Of a DNA stretch of 64,000 bases, positions 15,929 through 29,176 are shown piece by piece (position 1 is the stretch's first letter; each line of letters opens with the position of its first letter). The notes beneath the pieces are model-generated. The model did no database searches, was not told where the DNA came from, and worked only from the letters and a program-made list of their open reading frames with translations. Source of the DNA: an uncultured Rothia sp. (GTDB taxonomy: Bacteria > Actinomycetota > Actinomycetes > Actinomycetales > Micrococcaceae). A program made the position numbers and the translations under genes. The stretch lies in the NCBI RefSeq assembly GCF_916715725.1, contig NZ_CAKAPD010000001.1, positions 175,835 through 239,834 on the forward strand, read 5' to 3'.

Positions 15929-16004
15929 TTTCGATGGGGTTTCGATAGGTTAGTGTCTTCGCCGTGGGTTTTAAACCCCTGGGCAATCCACTAACCTATC
16001 GAAA
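15929..16004. repeat. REP/MITE-like palindromic element, copy 1 (arms ttcgataggttagtg / cactaacctatcgaa with an inner gggttttaaacccc hairpin)
   Basis: Same inverted-repeat arms as the copies near 19260, 20439 and 25006. Confidence 0.7.
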
Positions 16005-19259: not shown

Positions 19260-19342
19260 GTCGATAGGTTAGTGTCTTCGCCATGGGTCTTTAACCCGGG
19301 GTGAAGACACTAACCTATCGAAAAGTCACTAACCTATCGAAG
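19260..19342. repeat. REP/MITE-like palindromic element, copy 2 (upstream flank of the DUF559 gene)
   Basis: ggtcgataggttagtgtcttcgcc-atgggtctttaacccgg-ggtgaagacactaacctatcg plus the trailing half-site aaaagtcactaacctatcgaag. Confidence 0.75.
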
Positions 19343-19465
19343 TATTACCGAGGAATCCGCTCCATCTGCCTGTGGACAAACACTTTTTCGGTAGAATCCG
19401 CGAAGTTATCCACAGATTTCACAAACAAGCCCCACAACTCCACACAGCCTGCCAGGATAAAGCCT

Positions 19466-20422
19466 ATGAACACCGCAACCATTCCATGGCAACGCAACCC
19501 GCACAAGCCACCGACTACACCAGAAATCACCCGTGCCGCAGAACTACACCCATTCGTGCTGAACTCCCAGATGCTCAACCTGCGAGGAATCGGGCCGAAA
19601 CGCATTCGCAAGCTAGTGGCGGAAGGGTCTCTGCAGCGCATCCAACGAGGAGCCTATATTTATACCCGCGATGCCCAAGCGCTCACCCCCGAAGAACGAC
19701 TCACGGTACGATGCATCGCTGCTCAGACGATGGGTCTTCAAGGGGTCTTCTCCCACACATCAGCCGCGGCGCTATGGGGACTTGATGTGCTCTCTGTTCC
19801 CCAAACGATAAGCGTGTATAGCTGCAGTCATAGCACCTCTGACAAGGGAAGAATCACCCGGCATTACAGTGCCACCGGCCCCGAGGAGGTCACCCGATTA
19901 CCGGGCACATCCATCATGGTTACGACGGTGGCTCGAACGTTGCAGGATTGCGCTCGCAACATGCCCTTTCGGGAGGCAGTAGTTCTCGCTGACTCCATCA
20001 TGCGGCGGGGACTCTTGGAACCCCACGAGGTAACCGAGATTCTGCTGAATCTTACCGGCTACGGCGGTTCCTCCGGGCGCATCCTGGCGCAGGCGGTGGA
20101 TGCATCCAGCGAGTCAGCAGGTGAAAGCCTCACCCGGTGCCTACTCATGGAACACAGGCTACCCTCACCCGTTACGCAATACCCGGTTTCTTGCGAGGGT
20201 CGTAACTACCGGGTGGACTTCGCCTGGCCCGAGGCGCGGGTCATCCTCGAGTTCGACGGTGAACAGAAATACGTGGATTACCCCGGCAGGGACCGGTACG
20301 AGGCTGCTCGCGACCGTGCCCTAGCCCGCGCCGGGTGGACGGTCGTGCATCTAACCTGGGCTGACATTTTTCAGAAAGAACAGGAAGTCATTACCCACCT
20401 GCGGAAACTGCTTTTGAGGTAA
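19466..20422 (+). CDS. DUF559 / AbiEi-antitoxin-like domain protein (endonuclease-like C-terminal domain)
   Basis: The C-terminal …YRVDFAWPEARVILEFDGEQKY… is DUF559-like. The N-terminus resembles AbiEi-type wHTH proteins. The ATG at 19466 is chosen. The longer ORF starting near 19301 begins inside the repeat element. Confidence 0.65.
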   Translation: MNTATIPWQRNPHKPPTTPEITRAAELHPFVLNSQMLNLRGIGPKRIRKLVAEGSLQRIQRGAYIYTRDAQALTPEERLTVRCIAAQTMGLQGVFSHTSAAALWGLDVLSVPQTISVYSCSHSTSDKGRITRHYSATGPEEVTRLPGTSIMVTTVARTLQDCARNMPFREAVVLADSIMRRGLLEPHEVTEILLNLTGYGGSSGRILAQAVDASSESAGESLTRCLLMEHRLPSPVTQYPVSCEGRNYRVDFAWPEARVILEFDGEQKYVDYPGRDRYEAARDRALARAGWTVVHLTWADIFQKEQEVITHLRKLLLR

Positions 20423-20438
20423 AGCAAGGAAACACCTC

Positions 20439-20524
20439 GGTCGATAGGTTAGTGTCTTCCCTGCGGGTTAAAGACCCACGGCGAAGACACTAACCTATCG
20501 AAAAATCACTAACCTATCGAAAAT
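20439..20524. repeat. REP/MITE-like palindromic element, copy 3 (downstream flank of the DUF559 gene; the inner loop is inverted relative to copy 2)
   Basis: ggtcgataggttagtgtcttcc-ctgcgggttaaagacccacgg-cgaagacactaacctatcg plus aaaaatcactaacctatcgaaaatc. Confidence 0.75.
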
Positions 20525-20676: not shown

Positions 20677-22038
20677 TTACAGGCCCTCAGCACGCACGAT
20701 CTGAACGTGCAGGTCCTCAGCCGGCGGCATCCACGAAGCCGGATCGGCAGCAACCTGCTCACCCGAACGGATGTCCTTCACCTCGTGAACCGGGGCGCCC
20801 GACTCATCCGAAGAAATGAACCACACGAACGGAATGCCGCGCTTCTCGGCGTACTTAATCTGCTTGCCGAACTTCGCCGCGTTCGCCGACACCTCGCAGG
20901 CGATACCGCGGGCGCGCAGTGCATCCGCAACATCGTTCGCAGCAGACCAGCCCTCATCATTGGTCAGGGCAACGAACACAGCCGAAGGCACCTTACGGCT
21001 CGCCTGCGCAAAGCCCTGCGACAGGATACGAGCCACCACACGGGTCACGCCAATGGACAGGCCCACGCCCGGGTACGTCTTCTTGCCGTTCGAGGCCAGC
21101 GACTCGTAGCGACCACCCGAGCAAATCGAACCCAGCGACTCGTGGCCGACCAGCACGGTCTCGTACACGGTGCCGGTATAGTAGTCCAGACCGCGAGCAA
21201 TCGACAGGTCAGCCAGCACCTTACCCGGCGCACGGCGGGACGCCTCCTCAATGACCTCGGCCAGCTCAGTCAGGCCCTGGTCCAGCAGCTCGTGCTCCAC
21301 CGAATACTTGGCGGCCAGCTCACGCACCTGCTCCACGAAGGATGCATCCTCGGTACGAATCTGGGCCAGCTCCAGGGCGGCCGCGGCAGCCTCCGCGCTC
21401 GCTCCGGCCTCGGACTGAAGCTCCTCGGCCACGCGCTCCGGACCAATCTTCTCCAGCTTGTCGATGGAGCGCAGCACGGCCGCGGTGTCGGTCAGGCCCA
21501 GGCCCAGGTAGAAGCCCTCGGCCAGCTTGCGGTTATTCACACGCAGCTTGAACTCAGGAATCGGCAGCTTCGACAGCGCATCAACAACAACCAGCGCCAA
21601 GGTCACGTCGTAACGGAACGGCAGCTCACCGTCGCCAACCACGTCAATATCAGCCTGAGTGAACTCGCGGGCACGACCCTCCTGCGGACGCTCACCACGC
21701 CACACCTTCTGAATCTGGTAACGCGAGAACGGGAAATTCAGGTAACCGGCGTTCTCCACCACGTAACGGGCAAACGGCACGGTCAGGTCAAAGTGCAGAG
21801 CCAGCTTTTCCTTAGCCTTAGCAGCCTCATCCTCCTGCAGGCGAGAAATTGCGTAAACTTCCTTGTCAATCTCACCCTTGCGCAGCAGCTGCTCAATCGT
21901 CTCTACCGAACGAGTCTCAATCGGGGAGAAACCGTGCAACTCAAAAGTCTCACGCAGAGTGTCCAGAACATGATTCTCAACCAACCGCTCAGCCGGAAGA
22001 TACTCGGGAAAACCAGACAGCGAAGCCTTGCGAGCCAT
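20677..22038 (-). CDS. hisS: histidine--tRNA ligase
   Basis: HisRS motifs (…FELHGFSPIETRS…, GGRYD). The start MARKASLSGFPE is preceded by AAGGAG. Confidence 0.9.
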   Translation of the reverse strand: MARKASLSGFPEYLPAERLVENHVLDTLRETFELHGFSPIETRSVETIEQLLRKGEIDKEVYAISRLQEDEAAKAKEKLALHFDLTVPFARYVVENAGYLNFPFSRYQIQKVWRGERPQEGRAREFTQADIDVVGDGELPFRYDVTLALVVVDALSKLPIPEFKLRVNNRKLAEGFYLGLGLTDTAAVLRSIDKLEKIGPERVAEELQSEAGASAEAAAAALELAQIRTEDASFVEQVRELAAKYSVEHELLDQGLTELAEVIEEASRRAPGKVLADLSIARGLDYYTGTVYETVLVGHESLGSICSGGRYESLASNGKKTYPGVGLSIGVTRVVARILSQGFAQASRKVPSAVFVALTNDEGWSAANDVADALRARGIACEVSANAAKFGKQIKYAEKRGIPFVWFISSDESGAPVHEVKDIRSGEQVAADPASWMPPAEDLHVQIVRAEGL

Positions 22039-22340
22039 ACGCGATACTCCTTGACAAAGAACTCGACAACAAAACCCCGGAACACCTCCGGGCATATCTA
22101 CCCATCATACCAACACCCACCCCGGCACAGCACCCACTCCCCCACCTCACCCGGCACAAACCCCCACAAACCCGCGGACTGCAGGTTCGCCCACAACACA
22201 ACACGACCAGACACTACTCACACACACCCCACAGAGGCTATGCTTAGGAGGTGCACACGCACACCCAAACGGGTGCCCACCACGGGGAACAGCGCAAAGG
22301 CGCCCCACCCCCAGCACCCCCGAGTGAAAGAGTTATAGCG

Positions 22341-23609
22341 GTGACTACCAAACCCGACGACACTGTAAACCTCGAAAAGGCACGCCAGTACGGCCGCGTC
22401 TCCGAGGACGGCCACGTCTTCGTCATTGTCGACGGCGAAGAATACGCCGTAGGCCAGCTGCCCGGCGCCTCCGAAGAAGAAGCGCTCAGCTACTTCGCCC
22501 GCAAGTTTGAAAACGTCGAGGCGCAGGTTGCCCTGCTCGAATCCCGCCTCGCCAACAACGCCCCCGCCGCAGACCTGCAGAAGGGCATCACCTCCATCGG
22601 TGCACAGATCGGTGTGCGCAACATGGTCGGTGACTACTCCGGCCTGCAGAAGCGCCTCATCGCACTGGCAGAGCAGATCGCTGAACTCGGCGAAAAGCAG
22701 CAGCAGGCACGCACCGAAAACCGTGAACGCGCCCTCGCCGTCCGTGAAGAAATCGTCGCGGAAGCCGAGCAGATTGCCGGCCAGGACCCCGACCAGATCC
22801 ACTGGAAGAACTCCCACTCCCGTATGAACGAACTGTTCGAAGCGTGGAAGAAGGCACAGCGCGAAATTCACCTGGCAAAGAGCGTAGAGGACGAGCTGTG
22901 GAAGCGTTTCCGTGCAGCCCGCACCACCTTCGACCGCAACCGCCGCGCACACTTCTCGCAGCTCGACGACCGCAACGCACGCATCAAGCGCGCCAAGGAA
23001 GAGCTGATTGCACGCGCCGAAGAGCTGTCGACCTCCACTGACTGGTCTGAGACTTCCCGCGTATACGGCGACCTGATGCGCGCCTGGAAGCAGGTACCCC
23101 GCGGCCACCGTCGCGAAGACGACAAGCTGTGGGCACGCTTCCGCGCGGCACAGGACGTGTTCTTCAACGCCCGCAACGAAGCCGAAGCAGCGCAGGACGC
23201 AGTCTACGCCGAAAACCTCAAGGTCAAGGAAGCACTGCTCGAAGAAGCACGCGCACTCCTGCCCGTCGAAGACATTGAGAGCGCAAAGGCAGCCTTCGAG
23301 AAGATCCTGGACCGCTGGGATGCGGCAGGCCGCGTACCCCGCAACGACCTGCGCCGCGTCGACGGCGAACTGCGCCGTATTCAGGACGAAATCAACGGCG
23401 CCGAAGAGGCAAAGTGGAAGCGCAACGACCCCGCCAAGGCGGCACGCGCGAACTCCCTGCTCGCACAGATCGAGGACTCCCTCGCCGAACTGGAAGCAGA
23501 GCTCGCAGCAGCTGAAAAGGGCGGCGACTCCAAGAAGATCGCCAAGGCAAAGGAAGCTCTGGAGGCGCGCCGCGCCTGGGCAGCAACCCTGCAGGGCTTC
23601 GGCAACTAG
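22341..23609 (+). CDS. DUF349 domain-containing protein
   Basis: Repeated coiled-coil DUF349 units (…WKxAxR…). I chose the GTG at 22341, which has a GAAAGAG SD. The upstream GTG at 22251 abuts its SD with no spacer. Confidence 0.7.
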   Translation: MTTKPDDTVNLEKARQYGRVSEDGHVFVIVDGEEYAVGQLPGASEEEALSYFARKFENVEAQVALLESRLANNAPAADLQKGITSIGAQIGVRNMVGDYSGLQKRLIALAEQIAELGEKQQQARTENRERALAVREEIVAEAEQIAGQDPDQIHWKNSHSRMNELFEAWKKAQREIHLAKSVEDELWKRFRAARTTFDRNRRAHFSQLDDRNARIKRAKEELIARAEELSTSTDWSETSRVYGDLMRAWKQVPRGHRREDDKLWARFRAAQDVFFNARNEAEAAQDAVYAENLKVKEALLEEARALLPVEDIESAKAAFEKILDRWDAAGRVPRNDLRRVDGELRRIQDEINGAEEAKWKRNDPAKAARANSLLAQIEDSLAELEAELAAAEKGGDSKKIAKAKEALEARRAWAATLQGFGN

Positions 23610-23647
23610 GGTCTAGCCGACGGTCTAAATAACGGTCTAATTAACGC

Positions 23648-23716
23648 CGAGAAGCCACATGTGTTTCGAAAAGCCACTTCTTTGGTGGCTTCTCGAAACA
23701 CATGTGGCTTCTGCAT
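23648..23716. repeat. 65-bp near-perfect palindrome H1 (agaagccacatgtgtttcgaaaagccac-ttctttg-gtggcttctcgaaacacatgtggcttct)
   Basis: 28-bp stem with one mismatch. An inverted copy lies at 25130-25200. Confidence 0.8.
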
Positions 23717-23775
23717 GTCTGCGGGGGTTATATTCGCGCCCGCGGTGGCGCAGATTCCACGACCGGTCAACAGAT

Positions 23776-23800
23776 TGCTTGATAGGTTAGCATCTTGGCT
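23776..23800. repeat. partial copy of the REP/MITE arm (tgataggttagcatcttgg)
   Basis: Shares gataggttag with the arm of the dispersed element. Confidence 0.4.
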
Positions 23801-23984
23801 ACGAGCTAAAACCTCTCCTAAGTCAATACATTATGACTGAAGTTATAACTCATGAACCAATTTTCTACATAGATTGGCGCCTGCATTTATTTCATAGAAC
23901 CTATAATCACATTTAATCACTACAATCCAAGTGTAGCAAAAGACCTTTTCACTTAATACGGCAGCACACCCCTGAGGTTAAATA

Positions 23985-24881
23985 CTATCTAGTGAGTGCT
24001 ATTCCATATAAGAAGTTCAGAAAAAGAGCAGTTGCGGTGACGAGTAAGTACATGCAAAAAACTTGAATACTAGATTTGATGATTATCTTTTGAGTATTTT
24101 TATGGTTCCCCTCTTCAGCGTCATCTACCATATATTTTACAAAATCGAGATATACCAGATATGAGCTCGCTCCGAGAATGGCACCAACCACCGGAATCGC
24201 TGTTGTAAGAACCCCAAAGGGTTCTCCTTGAATCAAGGCAATCGTGAAGCCAATAAACAACCCGATAGTCGTTCCCCTACCAGCATAATCAATAAATTCA
24301 CGTATTAACGGAGTGAAGTACCCGACCTGCCACCTCGCTTTTATCCAGGAGCACTTCTCTAAGAAGCCCATTCCTTTAATAAGGTGCAGAGCGTCATCAA
24401 TGCTAATCTCACTGGCATTTTCCCAAACTTCAATTGTAGAATAGAATTCTTTCAGAGATACATAAACCTCCTGGAATGAATCATTTTTGGGAGATAAGTT
24501 AGTCATTTTCTTCAGCTGATTCAGTGAATTCATGCATCGATTCCGAGCAGCAGCACTTGAGTTATCTTCAGCTTTTTTAATGAAATACTGAACCTTATCA
24601 ATAAAGTCATTTTCTAAATCTTTCCTGGGAAACAGATTAAATGGGTGACGTAATTGATAAGCGAAATTCTTAAGTTCCTTCTTTCCAAATCGCTTCCAGT
24701 ATTCAGTCCTAGTTTCCTTACCTATCCCAAAATAACTCAGAACATTTAAAATGATCTCTCGCCTTGCAGCAGAGTACCAGTAATATCCAGTTGCTTCAAG
24801 GACAATATCAAAAATAGTCCAGGCAATTGATAAAACCAGGCAAAGAGCTGTAACTGCTACGACCGTACCAAAACTATACAA
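23985..24881 (-). CDS. orphan low-GC membrane protein (N-terminal TM, roughly 180-aa soluble domain, 2-3 C-terminal TM helices) with a TTG start
   Basis: 298-aa ORF in a roughly 35% GC segment. A TTG start at 24881 is preceded by AAGGGA with a 6-nt spacer. No recognisable family. Confidence 0.6.
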   Translation of the reverse strand: MYSFGTVVAVTALCLVLSIAWTIFDIVLEATGYYWYSAARREIILNVLSYFGIGKETRTEYWKRFGKKELKNFAYQLRHPFNLFPRKDLENDFIDKVQYFIKKAEDNSSAAARNRCMNSLNQLKKMTNLSPKNDSFQEVYVSLKEFYSTIEVWENASEISIDDALHLIKGMGFLEKCSWIKARWQVGYFTPLIREFIDYAGRGTTIGLFIGFTIALIQGEPFGVLTTAIPVVGAILGASSYLVYLDFVKYMVDDAEEGNHKNTQKIIIKSSIQVFCMYLLVTATALFLNFLYGIALTR

Positions 24882-25005
24882 AATTATTCCCTTCTTTTGA
24901 AATTGTAAGAGTACAAAAAACTGCCAATGCTACTACGTACTCTATAACCAAAGGTACGGGGCACCCCTGACAAGATAAGGGGCTACACCTGCAGAATTTG
25001 TGCCA

Positions 25006-25068
25006 TGGTTTAGTGTCTTTGACCATAGTTTTTAACTACGACAGAAGTCACTAACCTATGGTCGAAAT
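25006..25068. repeat. degenerate REP/MITE-like copy 4 (ggtttagtgtcttt … agtcactaacctatggtcgaaa)
   Basis: Variant arms ctaacctatgg/ccataggttag-like lie inside the low-GC island. Confidence 0.5.
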
Positions 25069-25129
25069 CGGCGCCAGGCAGAGGGACCGACCAGCAGAGT
25101 AAATCCGTGCCGATACCGCCCCCATAGAC

Positions 25130-25200
25130 AGCGAGAAGCCACATGTGTTTCGAGAAGCCACCAAAGAAGTGGCTTTTCGAAACACATGTGGCTTCTCGGC
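25130..25200. repeat. 65-bp palindrome H2, the reverse complement of H1 (loop caaagaa)
   Basis: agaagccacatgtgtttcgagaagccac-caaagaa-gtggcttttcgaaacacatgtggcttct lies immediately 3' of rel. Confidence 0.8.
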
Positions 25201-25212
25201 GTAGAAAAGTAT

Positions 25213-27690
25213 TTACGCCTCCGAGGGCTTCGCGCCGGTCAGGCGGTACGCCTTGTACACGCCCGTCACGTTACGGACCACGTTCAGCACGTGCTCCAGC
25301 ATGAAGCGGTCACCCAGCTCCAGGGCGAAACGGTCCACCACGGTACGATCCTCCGAAGTGTGAACGCGCGCATCCAGGATGTTCACGCCCGACTCAGAAA
25401 TCGCGCGAATCAGGTCGCTCAGCAGGCCCTTACGGTCCAGCGCCTCCACCTGAATCTGCACACGGTACGTAGCGGTCGGCGAAGACGCCCACTCAACCGT
25501 CGTCACGCGCGGCTCCTCGTCAGCGTTACGCATGTTCGGGCAGTCGCGACGGTGCACCGAAATGCCGTTGTAGCGGGTCACAATGCCGATAATGTCATCC
25601 GGCGGGACCGGGGTGCAGCAGCGCGCAATCTTCGTCAGCACACCCTCAGCACCCGGCACAATCACGCCGTTATCGCCAATCGCCTTGCGGGTCGACTTCA
25701 GCAGTGTCTCGTCAAAGTCGCTGACCTCAACCTCGGGTGCCGGCTCGTCGCCGCGGTGCACCTCAACGAGGGTGTCAATGACCTGCTTCGGCGCGATCTC
25801 GTGCTCACCAATCGCACGGTACAGCGACGCCACATCGTTCTTGTGCAACAGCTGAGCCACCTGAGTCATAATCTCCGGGCTCATCATCTTCTGCAGCGGC
25901 AACTCACTGTTACGCATGCTCTTGGTGAGCATCTCGCGGCCGGCGAGCAGCGCCTCCAGGCGGCGTTCCTTCGCGAAGTACTGGCGGATCTTCGTGCGAG
26001 CGCGTGAGGAGCGAACGAACTTCAGCCAGTCCTCGCTGGGGCCGGCGTCTTCGTTCTTCGTGGTCATGATCTCCACGGTGGCGCCGGTGGGCAGGACCGT
26101 GTGCAGCGGTACCAGGCGACCGTTGACCTTCGCGCCGACGGTGCGGTCGCCGACCTCACTGTGGATGGCGTAGGCGAAGTCCACGGGGGTGGAGCCGTTG
26201 GGCAGGGCAATTGCCTCGCCGTTGGGGGTGAGTACGACAATTTCGTCGGTGTCGAGGGTGTCGGCGAGCGACTCGTAGAACTTCTCCGATTCCGGGTTGG
26301 AGTTCGAAATCTCGGCGATGGACTGCAGGATGCCGACGTTCATCATTGCCGAGGTCTGGGTGCCCGGTTCCTTCGGGTCCTTTGCGGGCGCGCCGCCACG
26401 AGCCGCGACCTTCTCCCCGCGTGACGCCGCCTTGTAGCGCCAGTGCGCCGCCACACCGTACTCGGCCTCTTCGTGCATCTTGTAGGTGCGGATCTGAATC
26501 TCAAGCGGCAGGTTACCGGGGCCGTACACAGTCAGGTGCAGCGACTGGTAGTTGTTGTTCTTCGGGTTCTTAATGTAGTCCTTGAAACGGCCGGTCATCG
26601 ACGGCCACAGGGACAGCACGTGGCCGAGCACGGTGTAGCACTCCGCCTCTTCCTCAACCATGATGCGCACGGCGAGGATGTCGTTAATCTCGTCGAAGCT
26701 GCGGCCCTTCGTCTTCATCTTCTGATGAATCGAGTAGTAGTGCTTGGGGCGGCCCGTCACGGTCGCGTCGATGCCCACTTCTTTCAGGCGGTCCGTAATC
26801 TTGGTGCGCGCCTCGTTCAGGAACTTTTCGAGCGCGGGGGTGCGTTCGCCGACCATGCGCACCATCTCGGCGTAAATCTCCGGGCTCATGGCGGCGAAGG
26901 ACAGGTCCTCCAGCTCCCACTTGATCGTGTTCAGGCCCAGGCGGTGCGCGAGCGGCGCGTAAATCTTCAGGGTCTCTTCTGCCTTCTTCGCGGCGGAAGC
27001 CTGCGGCACGAAACGCCAGGTGCGGGCGTTGTGCAGGCGGTCGGCAAGCTTGATGAGCAGCACGCGGATGTCCTTGCTCATGGACAGCACGAGCTTGCGG
27101 ATTGTCTCAATGGAGGCGTTCTCGCCGTAGGTCATCTTGTCCAGCTTGGTCACGCCGTCGACCAGGTAGGCGACCTCCTCACCGAACTCTTCGGTGAGCT
27201 GCTCCATCGTGTAGTCGGTGTCTTCCACCGTGTCATGCAGCAGGCCGGCGGCGAGCACGGGACCGGTCGCGCCCATCTCCGCAAGAATCGCGGTCACAGC
27301 GACCGGGTGGGTGATGTACGGGTCGCCACTCTTACGCTTCTGACCCTCGTGGCAGCGGTTCGCCACCTCGTAGGCGCGCTGCAGCACCTGAATGTCCTCA
27401 TCCGGGTGGTAGCGGCGCACCGCACGCACGACCGGCGCAATCATCGGGGAGAAACGGATGGTACCGCCGTGCGAGTCGGAGGCTTCCATCTTGCTGCTGC
27501 GGCTACCAAAGACCAGGCGGTTCGGCACACGTCCGCCAGCAGCCATGACGCGGTGCGAGCCGCGTTTCTTCTTTGCGTCAGACGAATCAGTTTCAGGCAG
27601 AGGAATCGGGCCAGCGGGCCGAACCGCGGGCTTCTCGGCGGTCCCTGCGGGATTCTCAGCGTTAGCGTTCACGGCAGGTTCTGCACTCAT
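25213..27690 (-). CDS. relA: bifunctional (p)ppGpp synthetase/hydrolase Rel (RelA/SpoT family)
   Basis: HD hydrolase, synthetase (…YQSLHLTVYGP…), TGS and ACT regions. I chose the ATG at 27690, which has a GGAGC SD. Confidence 0.9.
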   Translation of the reverse strand: MSAEPAVNANAENPAGTAEKPAVRPAGPIPLPETDSSDAKKKRGSHRVMAAGGRVPNRLVFGSRSSKMEASDSHGGTIRFSPMIAPVVRAVRRYHPDEDIQVLQRAYEVANRCHEGQKRKSGDPYITHPVAVTAILAEMGATGPVLAAGLLHDTVEDTDYTMEQLTEEFGEEVAYLVDGVTKLDKMTYGENASIETIRKLVLSMSKDIRVLLIKLADRLHNARTWRFVPQASAAKKAEETLKIYAPLAHRLGLNTIKWELEDLSFAAMSPEIYAEMVRMVGERTPALEKFLNEARTKITDRLKEVGIDATVTGRPKHYYSIHQKMKTKGRSFDEINDILAVRIMVEEEAECYTVLGHVLSLWPSMTGRFKDYIKNPKNNNYQSLHLTVYGPGNLPLEIQIRTYKMHEEAEYGVAAHWRYKAASRGEKVAARGGAPAKDPKEPGTQTSAMMNVGILQSIAEISNSNPESEKFYESLADTLDTDEIVVLTPNGEAIALPNGSTPVDFAYAIHSEVGDRTVGAKVNGRLVPLHTVLPTGATVEIMTTKNEDAGPSEDWLKFVRSSRARTKIRQYFAKERRLEALLAGREMLTKSMRNSELPLQKMMSPEIMTQVAQLLHKNDVASLYRAIGEHEIAPKQVIDTLVEVHRGDEPAPEVEVSDFDETLLKSTRKAIGDNGVIVPGAEGVLTKIARCCTPVPPDDIIGIVTRYNGISVHRRDCPNMRNADEEPRVTTVEWASSPTATYRVQIQVEALDRKGLLSDLIRAISESGVNILDARVHTSEDRTVVDRFALELGDRFMLEHVLNVVRNVTGVYKAYRLTGAKPSEA

Positions 27691-27988
27691 TCCAGGCTCC
27701 TTTGGGCTCGAGATAATCAGCCGCACACTCAGGTTCCTCATCATTGAGGGCTATACCGGCCAAACCAGCCATCAGCAGGCTCAAACGCGAGCGCACAGTA
27801 TCTTCACTTCTTATCCTACCCAGCGGCCTGGAAGGCGCCAAACTATGCGACGTTTTAACACGCCAAAGCGCGTTGTGTGGGAAATATTCGGGCACGCTAA
27901 AGGTTCAGGCACGCTAAAGGGGAGCCAACACCTCTCGGTATCGACTCCCCTATCGTTAGCAACGCCAGTAGCGCTAGCGGAACACAGC

Positions 27989-29176
27989 TTAGCCGTTCAG
28001 GTTCACGCGGTGAATCTCAATGGTTGCACGTGCCGGCTTCTTAGCGGGCTTCTCGGTTGCGTTGTCCGCATCGGTCGCCTCGTCGGCAGAATCCGCAGAC
28101 TTCTCAGCCTTCTCAGACTTAGAGGATTCAGCGGACTCCTCCGAAGAGTCACCCTCAGCCTCGTCAGCATCCTCAGCGTCCTTGAAGCTGCCGCTCTCCA
28201 CCTTCGCGGTGTGCTCACGAATCTGAGCCTCACCCAAACGCAGCGAAGCATACAGCGGCGCAGACACGAACAGCGTACCGAACATGCCCACCAGAATACC
28301 CACGAACAGCGACAGGGACAGGTCCTGCAGAGTACCCGCACCCAGGATGAACGCACCAATAAACAGGATCGCGCCCACCGGCAGAACACCCACAATAGCG
28401 GTGTTAATCGAACGGACCAGGGTCTGGTTCACCGCCAGGTTAATCTGCTCGGCAAAGGTCGTGTCGCGGCGTTCCAGCACATCCTCGGTGTTCTCACGGA
28501 TCTTATCGAACACCACCACCGAGTCGTACAGCGAGTAGCTCAGAATCGTCAAGAAACCAATAATTGCACTCGGAGTGATCTCGAAGCCGAACGCGGCGTA
28601 CAGGCCAACCGTCACCACCACGGTGAAGAACAGGCCCGCAATAGACGCCAACGACATCTTCCAGGTGCGGAAGTAGAACGCCATACCAATCAGCGCAAGC
28701 ACCACAAACGCGATCAGACCCCAGAACGCCTGACGGGTCACATCCGCACCCCAGGTCGGGCCCACAAACGAGGAGGTCACGTCATTCTCAGAGACGCCGT
28801 ACGCCTCCTGCAGGGCCGCCTTCACCTGCAGAGTCTCATCATCGCTAAGCTTGCTCATCTGGGCACGAATCGTACCCGGCGCAATATTGGTCACGCGAAC
28901 ATCCGAAGCGTCCTTCGCCTTCTCGTGAATAATGCGCTCACCTGTAGCAGTATCAACGTGCGCGGTCTTCGAGACCACGAACTCCGAACCGCCACGGAAA
29001 TCAATACCCAGGTTGAAGCCGCCACCAACAGCCGGAATCAGAACCGAAACCGCCATCAGCACAGCTGCAAGCAGCAGCCACAGGCGGCGCTTACCCACGA
29101 AGGGGTACGAGCGGGCACCCGAATGCAGGTCATTACCGAAGCGGGCAAAAGCATTAGGTTTCACATCGGTAGCCAT
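27989..29176 (-). CDS. secF: protein translocase subunit SecF
   Basis: Six-TM SecF architecture. It sits directly downstream of secD. Confidence 0.9.
   Translation of the reverse strand: MATDVKPNAFARFGNDLHSGARSYPFVGKRRLWLLLAAVLMAVSVLIPAVGGGFNLGIDFRGGSEFVVSKTAHVDTATGERIIHEKAKDASDVRVTNIAPGTIRAQMSKLSDDETLQVKAALQEAYGVSENDVTSSFVGPTWGADVTRQAFWGLIAFVVLALIGMAFYFRTWKMSLASIAGLFFTVVVTVGLYAAFGFEITPSAIIGFLTILSYSLYDSVVVFDKIRENTEDVLERRDTTFAEQINLAVNQTLVRSINTAIVGVLPVGAILFIGAFILGAGTLQDLSLSLFVGILVGMFGTLFVSAPLYASLRLGEAQIREHTAKVESGSFKDAEDADEAEGDSSEESAESSKSEKAEKSADSADEATDADNATEKPAKKPARATIEIHRVNLNG

Follow-up and report, generated by a model that had tools for sequence, protein, structure and literature searches.

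A strain-variable gene slot bordered by inverted hairpins between relA and a DUF349 gene in Rothia

Layout of the locus

A 64,000-nucleotide (nt) stretch of contig NZ_CAKAPD010000001.1 from an uncultured Rothia sp. (assembly GCF_916715725.1), hereafter the window, was analysed around the interval between a DUF349 gene and relA/spoT (hereafter relA). This interval is bordered by two inverted copies of a long hairpin (H1 and H2) and carries a single gene for a membrane protein (the cargo gene). An earlier note, made from the sequence alone, had described it as a cassette of low guanine-cytosine (GC) content flanked by palindromes. Rothia loci and contigs compared with the window are given L-numbers, and homologous proteins P-numbers. 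The features of the locus are as follows.

22251–23609, plus strand: DUF349 core gene, 452 amino acids (aa), Pfam DUF349 with E = 1e-45; left anchor of the variable interval
23650–23712, unstranded: H1, an H-family hairpin of 63 nt that starts 40 nt past the DUF349 stop codon
23713–23797, unstranded: inner border of H1, a linker (GCATGTCTGCGGGGG...) and a truncated M-type palindrome arm (23782–23797)
23985–24881, minus strand: cargo gene for a 298-aa membrane protein, GC 38.9%; the sole long open reading frame between H1 and H2
24933–24985, minus strand: conserved 5′ module (GTAGCCCCTTATCTTGTCAGGGGTGCCCCGTACCTTTGGTTATAGAGTAC) upstream of the cargo gene
About 24991–25072, unstranded: M element, a second Rothia palindromic repeat, with arms ..ATGGTTTAGTGTCTT.. 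and ..AAGTCACTAACCTAT..
25134–25196, unstranded: H2, an H-family hairpin of 63 nt, the reverse complement of H1, ending 16 nt from the relA stop codon
25213–27744, minus strand: relA/spoT, bifunctional (p)ppGpp synthetase/hydrolase (Pfam HD_4, RelA_SpoT, TGS and ACT); right anchor of the interval

The gene neighbourhood comprises hisS, the DUF349 gene (+), relA (−) and secF. DUF349 and relA are convergent core genes, and both adjoin the interval in the related loci examined. The interior (23713–25133) had a GC content of 41% overall and 36%–42% per 400-nt window, against approximately 62% in the flanks; the size of about 1.4 kb and the low GC noted earlier were confirmed, the value of about 35% being slightly low. 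No recombinase or transposase was found among the open reading frames in or beside the cassette. The outer flanks of H1 and H2 (TTAACGCCG and CGGCGTAGAA) mirror one another and are not direct repeats, and no target-site duplication was found there.

H1 and H2 proved to be mutual reverse complements, with the loops TTCTTTG and CAAAGAA, at the positions first given for them. The arms of H1 (23650–23677 and 23685–23712) form a 28-bp stem with 96% complementarity around a 7-nt loop, interrupted by a single A·C pair on the plus strand (G·U on the minus strand). Those of H2 (25132–25161 and 25169–25198) extend to 30 bp through two extra CG pairs, with 97% complementarity, a 7-nt loop and a single G·T pair on the plus strand. 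The stems, which had been called perfect, are thus nearly so, each containing one non-Watson–Crick pair. The inverted repeat as a whole reaches 84 nt at 94% (23644–23727 and 25119–25202). A 20-mer of the arm occurred four times in the window (0.01 expected), and a profile built from 82 H-family members matched just H1 and H2 in the 64 kb. The predicted RNA folds of the two hairpins had energies of −55 to −58 kcal/mol (z = −11 to −12).

The reported lack of U-tracts was borne out, as no T-run follows either hairpin on the inner side (GCATGTCT / CGCTGTCT) or on the outer side (CGGCGTTA / CGGCGTAG), and a terminator scan reported neither hairpin. Compared with a canonical intrinsic terminator, i.e., a GC-rich hairpin with an immediate U-tract of 7–9 nt, H1 and H2 fail on the U-tract. 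An Rfam search with H gave nothing at gathering scores, and relaxed thresholds led to spurious microRNA precursor matches.

The degenerate copy of a repetitive extragenic palindromic (REP) or miniature inverted-repeat transposable element (MITE) noted inside the cassette is also real: it corresponds to the M copy and the half copy listed above. M is an imperfect palindrome with arms ..ATAGGTTAGTGTCTTC.. and is commoner than H. In the window, it occurs at about 24991–25072, as the half copy at 23782–23797, and at 15945, 19264 and 20444. M usually adjoins H, and the borders of the interval in most strains, read from the core gene inwards, consist of H, a G-rich linker and M.

The relA–DUF349 interval as a variable slot

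Positions 21000–28000 of the window were compared with Rothia loci. The relA and DUF349 genes were approximately 94%–97% identical in all loci compared; the content between them differed greatly, and the interval ranged from 1.4 to approximately 19.5 kb across strains.

This window, 1.4 kb: a single 298-aa gene; the smallest version known
L008 and L070, 1.6–1.8 kb: one Rce1/CPBP-like protein of low GC
L005, 2.6 kb: a pair of DUF6318 lipoproteins
FFMG-307-4-21, about 10 kb: a complete Type I restriction-modification system
CAUTJW metagenome-assembled genome (MAG), about 12 kb: an HKD-SNF2 helicase and a HEPN protein
L118–L121: an HKD-SNF2 helicase with MmeI-type and SLFN proteins
HMSC061D12, about 13 kb: a Type III restriction system and a DrmD-like helicase
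ATCC 25296, about 19.5 kb: content incompletely covered

The same flanking genes, differing content and recognised defence systems in other strains are the features of a hotspot flanked by core genes. The relA–DUF349 interval is a long-standing, strain-variable defence and accessory hotspot of the species. Similarity between haplotypes stops 10–29 nt inside H1, making H the last element common to all, and the same hairpins stay at the ends of the core genes when the cargo is 10–19 kb of other genes. In several strains, relA is followed by a canonical terminator (hairpin and T-run) and DUF349 by its own GC-rich hairpin, each then followed by H. In the haplotype of the window, these native terminators are absent and H is the sole strong hairpin past either gene.

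An empty site, in which H1 would directly abut H2, was sought in relatives and was found in none of about 25 genomes and contigs. Two candidates were rejected: L121 keeps the last 7 nt of H and is therefore a deletion, and in L116, a different cargo begins right after the native relA terminator. All contigs that encode an identical DUF349 protein and extend past DUF349 had the same single-gene arrangement. Contigs of 1.2–1.9 kb that carry the cargo gene alone and end in or at H were common in metagenome assemblies (e.g., L128 and L129). Because H repeats break short-read assemblies, the slot should be under-represented in binned genomes.

The H repeat family in Rothia

A scan for exact matches to the 20-mer, with one genome per species, returned at least 117 stretches, so the palindrome does have other copies, as the earlier note had anticipated. 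The stretches came from 22 assemblies labelled Rothia mucilaginosa, Rothia sp. or uncultured Rothia, and from nothing else among the matches listed. On these matches, H is a dispersed repeat specific to the Rothia mucilaginosa group. With mismatches allowed, at least 167 H copies were counted in the listed loci, reaching about a dozen per assembly among these matches. Most (144) were 63 nt long, and approximately 20 were short forms of 33–44 nt in which the outer arms AGAAGCCACATGTG alone were kept. None lay inside a gene; 57 were located in convergent, 69 in tandem and 12 in divergent intergenic gaps, at a median distance of 40 nt past the upstream stop codon. In many cases, the genes enclosed by a pair of H copies had an ordinary GC content and occupied the same position in different assemblies.

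The arms of H are near-invariant (≥ 90%) and the loop is variable. Compensatory changes were essentially zero, variable stem positions appearing as mismatches, and the G·T / A·C pair was shared by 110 of 134 aligned copies. The conservation of H is therefore one of sequence and not merely of structure. The orientation of the conserved G·T pair relative to transcription was unbiased (18 vs. 26 in tandem gaps and 18 vs. 25 in convergent gaps), and a strand-specific RNA role was rejected on this basis. A function as a DNA uptake sequence was likewise rejected, as the 9-mer AGAAGCCAC was not enriched outside the hairpins. The apparent consensus of the H flanks is inflated by orthologous copies of the present locus and was not used as evidence. 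No match was obtained for the H arm in viral contigs, for the cassette DNA in phage and plasmid collections, or for the cargo protein in the plasmid collection.

At the position of H1 after DUF349, orthologous hairpins (L070, L042, L087, L104, L119, L041 and L061) differed in their loops, which read TTCTTTG, its flipped form CAAAGAA, CATTATC, CACTATC, AATAATG or AACGATG. In L041, another interior lay between the same outer arms. Since the flanks were approximately 95% identical, the H loops flip or are swapped much faster than the surrounding DNA changes.

Elsewhere, four H copies at L003:3316–6729 (also in L011, L029 and L096) separate three single genes, which encode membrane proteins of 305 and 280 aa and a DUF559-like protein of 307 aa. 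Most of the other H-bracketed genes likewise had no Pfam family (e.g., 394-aa, 348-aa and 370-aa proteins).

The cargo gene and its protein

The sole gene of the cassette encodes, as described earlier, a 298-aa membrane protein and begins with a TTG codon preceded, at 7 nt, by the purine-rich sequence GAAGGGA. It is located downstream of relA on the same strand. The protein has four hydrophobic segments (residues of about 5–29, 204–222, 226–246 and 270–294) and a helical loop of approximately 170 aa. Its family shares the invariant motif D-x-x-G-R-G-T-T-x-G-x-x-x-G followed by G-x-x-x-G, a glycine-zipper pattern. No match was found in Pfam (above the cut-off), NCBIfam, PHROGs or PADLOC, and the protein matched no profile of a described defence effector or Abi/CPBP family. 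An AlphaFold model based on a 30-sequence alignment was all-helical and unreliable (predicted local distance difference test score of 48).

The earlier description as an orphan without a recognisable family holds for the library searches. It does not hold for homologues, of which there were 48 clusters, all from Rothia where a source was named. A profile search of 1.84 billion representative proteins gave just 13 matches to the family, and when the alignment was broadened, close relatives dominated the results and P0059 was the sole addition. The distant members with a named source were from Schaalia and Trueperella. On these searches, the cargo protein belongs to a small family restricted to Actinomycetota.

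Three allele groups of the cargo gene were distinguished, with approximately 50% aa identity between them, and they share the relA–DUF349 locus in every Rothia context examined. Between the groups, the synonymous divergence (dS) was 1.3–1.9, i.e., saturated, and the ratio of nonsynonymous to synonymous divergence (dN/dS) was 0.2–0.3. Because dN/dS is this low despite saturated synonymous sites, the cargo gene is functional and under purifying selection. The gene did not show host-like GC in relatives: all allele groups throughout Rothia had a GC content of 0.38 and a GC content at third codon positions of 0.29–0.38, compared with 0.63 and about 0.8, respectively, in neighbouring genes. The allele type of the window is common, with one member of its 90% cluster found on 352 contigs, and the cargo gene is the most persistent resident of the relA–DUF349 locus in the species.

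The 5′ module upstream of the cargo gene contains a 50-nt block (CCCCTTATCTTGTCAGGGGTGCCCCGTACC...TAGAG.AC), which in other strains precedes an unrelated 82-aa gene of the same interval. Of 32 matches to the module, 30 were in loci of the relA–DUF349 interval and the other two were more divergent. This distribution suggests that the module is probably a shared promoter or regulatory region belonging to the slot and not to the cargo.

A paralog of the cargo protein, P0049 (290 aa, GC 0.40, 34% identical), was found in a second Rothia hotspot. This second slot (L140:6762–9994, the same locus as in L036, L083, L092, L095 and L097) has H and M at its borders, and its cargo varies between strains. 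P0049 is located immediately downstream of a Ppx-GppA gene and precedes a half H, two copies of M type and a DUF6609 gene. Both slots with this cargo family are thus located just downstream of (p)ppGpp-related genes (relA and ppx/gppA), which could be a coincidence. In L087:5801–6693, a frameshift divides the cargo gene (99% identical) into parts of 116 and 182 aa, and about 380 nt of other sequence replace the border on the H2 side; this copy may represent a pseudogene or an assembly error. The defence or abortive-infection role suggested earlier for the cargo protein has its basis in the neighbouring genes alone, from which the best guess would be a role in membrane-acting defence or immunity.

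Recent spread of the cassette

Contigs that share the allele of the window were taken from other samples for comparison; three of them (L130, L132 and L126) cover the whole of relA together with the cassette and DUF349. These three differed from the window at only 1–2 of 1421 positions between H1 and H2 and at 73–88 of 2532 positions in relA, with 1–8 differences over 1359 positions in DUF349. In L127, which ends 51 nt short of the relA start, there were 2 differences in the cassette, 83 in relA and 8 in DUF349. L133, which ends inside the cassette at 25017, differed once within the cassette sequence that it covers and at 16 positions in DUF349. The MAG L087 was more distant, with 131 differences in relA and, as far as these two are covered, 14 in the cassette and 37 in DUF349. 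Because the DNA between H1 and H2 is nearly identical (overall, 1–3 differences in 1421 nt) despite the divergence of relA, these comparisons indicate that the cassette has recently passed between backgrounds that are 3%–5% diverged.

At the left edge, mismatches in the flank reach 23618 in L133 and 23641 in L087, and the H1 loop is replaced in both. Inside this edge, L133 differs at 24915 alone up to its end, and L087 shows sparse differences. The left edges of L133 and L087 probably reflect one shared event. At the right edge, the first differences appear 20–300 nt into relA. This pattern fits homologous exchange with crossovers near the borders and does not in itself prove that the hairpins cause the exchange.

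Proposed role of the hairpins and alternative explanations

The earlier note had suggested a palindrome-mediated acquisition hotspot. The hotspot is supported by the differing cargo between strains; mediation by the palindromes is not, because H adjoins the stop codons of the core genes whatever the cargo and also brackets ordinary-GC genes elsewhere, so bracketing alone is no evidence of acquisition through H. The hairpins are the borders of the variable DNA, and it is possible that they are also agents of its acquisition. We consider it probable that H hairpins are terminator-like or insulator-like 3′-end elements at the borders of a hotspot in which cargo is swapped by recombination in the flanks. 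In the window haplotype, H1 and H2 would stand in for the native terminators of DUF349 and relA; because the native structures are absent there, H could serve as the 3′-end element of both genes. It would act in either direction as an RNA 3′-end element, through termination, possibly with a helper factor, or through protection of transcript ends. In this way, it would insulate relA and DUF349 from whatever lies between them. The cargo gene would be expressed from the conserved border module, and cargo would be exchanged between strains via homologous recombination in the flanks, with crossovers in or near the hairpins and the relA 3′ end. Even with the U-tract missing, H may have a terminator-like or other 3′-end role.

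Several points weigh against this interpretation. Mycobacterial RNA polymerase requires a U-tract at intrinsic terminators in vitro (PMC3993855), and because H has none, direct intrinsic termination at H is doubtful. Sequence conservation without covariation fits protein recognition or recent amplification equally, and the flipped and replaced loops at orthologous H copies hint that the hairpins themselves recombine. H also brackets unannotated accessory genes preferentially. The placement of H relative to genes was derived from a simple codon-usage gene caller, which is crude, and many H loci are orthologous, so the placement counts are not independent.

Some of these points bear on the view that H and the adjacent M are active recombination sites that create the hotspot, with cassettes exchanged between strains and loci through ectopic homologous recombination or gene conversion between copies, hairpin-induced breaks or a dedicated nuclease. 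The onset of variable DNA 10–29 nt inside H1 across haplotypes would be expected of such sites, and the differing or flipped loops of orthologous H1 hairpins match those of H copies at other places, pointing to gene conversion. In one case, a recombination tract has its end inside H1, although this left-hand case is probably one event common to L133 and L087, and the right-hand tract ends are scattered 20–300 nt into relA and do not fall at H2. Further support is given by the 34%-identical cargo paralog in the second hotspot bounded by H and M beside the ppx/gppA gene, by the gene bracketed by two M copies at 19264–20517, which is inverted and replaced in other strains, and by arrays of single unannotated genes separated by H, as in L003. 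Genes for DUF559/AbiEi-like nucleases bracketed by M–M or H–H, in the manner of REP-associated tyrosine transposase (RAYT) genes flanked by REPs, point in the same direction. However, homology in the core-gene flanks suffices for the exchange, no recombinase is encoded in or beside the cassette, many H pairs surround normal-GC genes that are fixed in place across assemblies, and viral, phage and plasmid collections gave no matches. On balance, we regard recombination at H and M as possible but rather unlikely. In a more specific and clearly improbable form of this idea, H and M would be the cis sites of an unrecognised cassette-exchange system of Actinomycetota, on which the DUF559/AbiEi-like nucleases act in trans. 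If so, single accessory genes would be swapped, inverted and moved between a small number of permissive slots, two of them downstream of relA and ppx/gppA, and the 298-aa glycine-zipper protein would be one such shuffled membrane effector.

The two remaining explanations treat the cassette itself as a mobile unit. The 1.5-kb segment of H1, gene and H2 could be a transposon of the composite or MITE-pair kind, H forming the terminal inverted repeats, as its inverted 84-nt ends (94% identical), its low-GC interior and the frequency in assemblies of 1.3–1.9-kb contigs with the cargo gene alone might suggest. Such contigs are explained by assembly breaks at repeats, however, and both the unit and the three allele groups found in Rothia are confined to the relA–DUF349 interval, where the hairpins remain when the cargo is 10–19 kb of other genes. 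With no target-site duplication, no transposase or other recombinase and no occurrence of the cassette elsewhere, the composite insertion considered in the earlier note was not upheld, and a transposon is very improbable. An integron-like system with H as attC is, in our judgement, scarcely credible. Single-gene units between conserved palindromes of approximately 60 nt, including arrays of three units, do recall integron cassettes, but no integrase gene is located near the locus and the near-perfect stems have neither the extrahelical bases nor the R/L box (GTTRRRY) of attC. Moreover, the genes vary in orientation and are preceded by an upstream module of their own, and H also sits past ordinary core genes.

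Comparison with known systems

Among described repeats, H is closest to TRIT ('Tuberculosis Rho-independent terminator') of Mycobacterium, a palindrome of gene termini that is confined to the genus, conserved in sequence, mostly bidirectional and present in 147 copies (PMC3152330). TRIT has been reported in Mycobacterium alone, and its sequence conservation led the authors to suspect a helper factor (Gardner et al. 2011; PMC3152330). Both are palindromes restricted to one actinobacterial genus, conserved in sequence and structure, mostly bidirectional, located at gene termini without a canonical U-tract and present in tens to more than 100 copies. They differ in position, as TRIT lies at about −8 relative to the stop codon and H about 40 nt past it. 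H is also longer, with a stem of 28 bp, comprises a long form of 63 nt and a short one of 33–44 nt, and is concentrated near accessory genes. The two occur in different genera and are probably unrelated in sequence. Thus, H shares with TRIT the character of a genus-restricted gene-terminus palindrome and is best regarded as a probable analogue, not a member, of that family.

H also resembles REP sequences and REPINs, which are dispersed extragenic palindromes located mostly at gene 3′ ends, in both orientations and with lineage-conserved sequence (PMC3116915; PMC3733652); in both cases, some genes are bracketed by inverted copies. In contrast to these elements, H lacks the GTAG/CGTC tag (PMC3733652), its flanks reading ..C.gCG / AGAAGCC ... 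GGCTTCT / CGGCGt.., and its copies seem to be far fewer, reaching about a dozen in an assembly among the matches listed. No Y1 (RAYT) transposase gene was found among the open reading frames of the locus, no genome-wide search having been made, and the bracketed genes seen with H and M are DUF559/AbiEi-like, unlike the Y1 transposases of REP–RAYT systems. The likeness to attC is limited to palindromic sites of approximately 60 nt between single-gene units; H has no integrase, attC boxes or extrahelical bases, and each gene comes with an upstream region of its own.

Defence islands and integration hotspots between conserved core genes are well established in bacterial pangenomes. The relA–DUF349 slot shares with them a fixed core pair, differing cargo that includes Type I and Type III restriction-modification and helicase/nuclease modules, and exchange via homologous recombination in the flanks. 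It differs in that both borders carry the same inverted hairpin and M composite, with no integrase or tRNA gene, and in that its smallest version is a single uncharacterised membrane protein. The findings therefore fall mostly into known categories, namely REP/TRIT-like lineage-specific hairpins and a defence hotspot flanked by core genes. No paper on palindromic repeats or defence hotspots of Rothia mucilaginosa or Rothia was found in the searchable literature. The H and M repeat families themselves appear new, and so does the regularity with which they mark the borders of variable slots in Rothia. The same applies to the small family of glycine-zipper membrane proteins, whose genes are uniformly low in GC and show ancient allele groups and a recent sweep.

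Rothia mucilaginosa is an abundant commensal of the mouth and airways, and H and M provide easy landmarks for its variable slots and explain why metagenome assemblies break at such slots. The H family makes Rothia a second actinobacterial genus with a sequence-conserved gene-end hairpin lacking a U-tract, which bears on how transcripts are ended or stabilised. The relA–DUF349 slot also offers a clean natural case for studying selection on an uncharacterised gene that sits beside anti-phage systems.

Genes bracketed by M

At positions 19264–20517 of the window, two M copies flank a lone DUF559/AbiEi_4-like gene (318 aa, 19466–20419, plus strand). Between these copies, L130, L132 and L126 were inverted and just 77% identical to the window, whereas the flanks were 87%–95% identical. 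A paralog with 28% identity to this protein is bracketed by two H copies in L003, L011, L029 and L096, and the DUF559/AbiEi-like genes bracketed by M–M or H–H resemble REP-flanked RAYT genes. The segment 18951–20800 of the window was 100% identical to L131 (ENA ERZ14209508 NODE_9).

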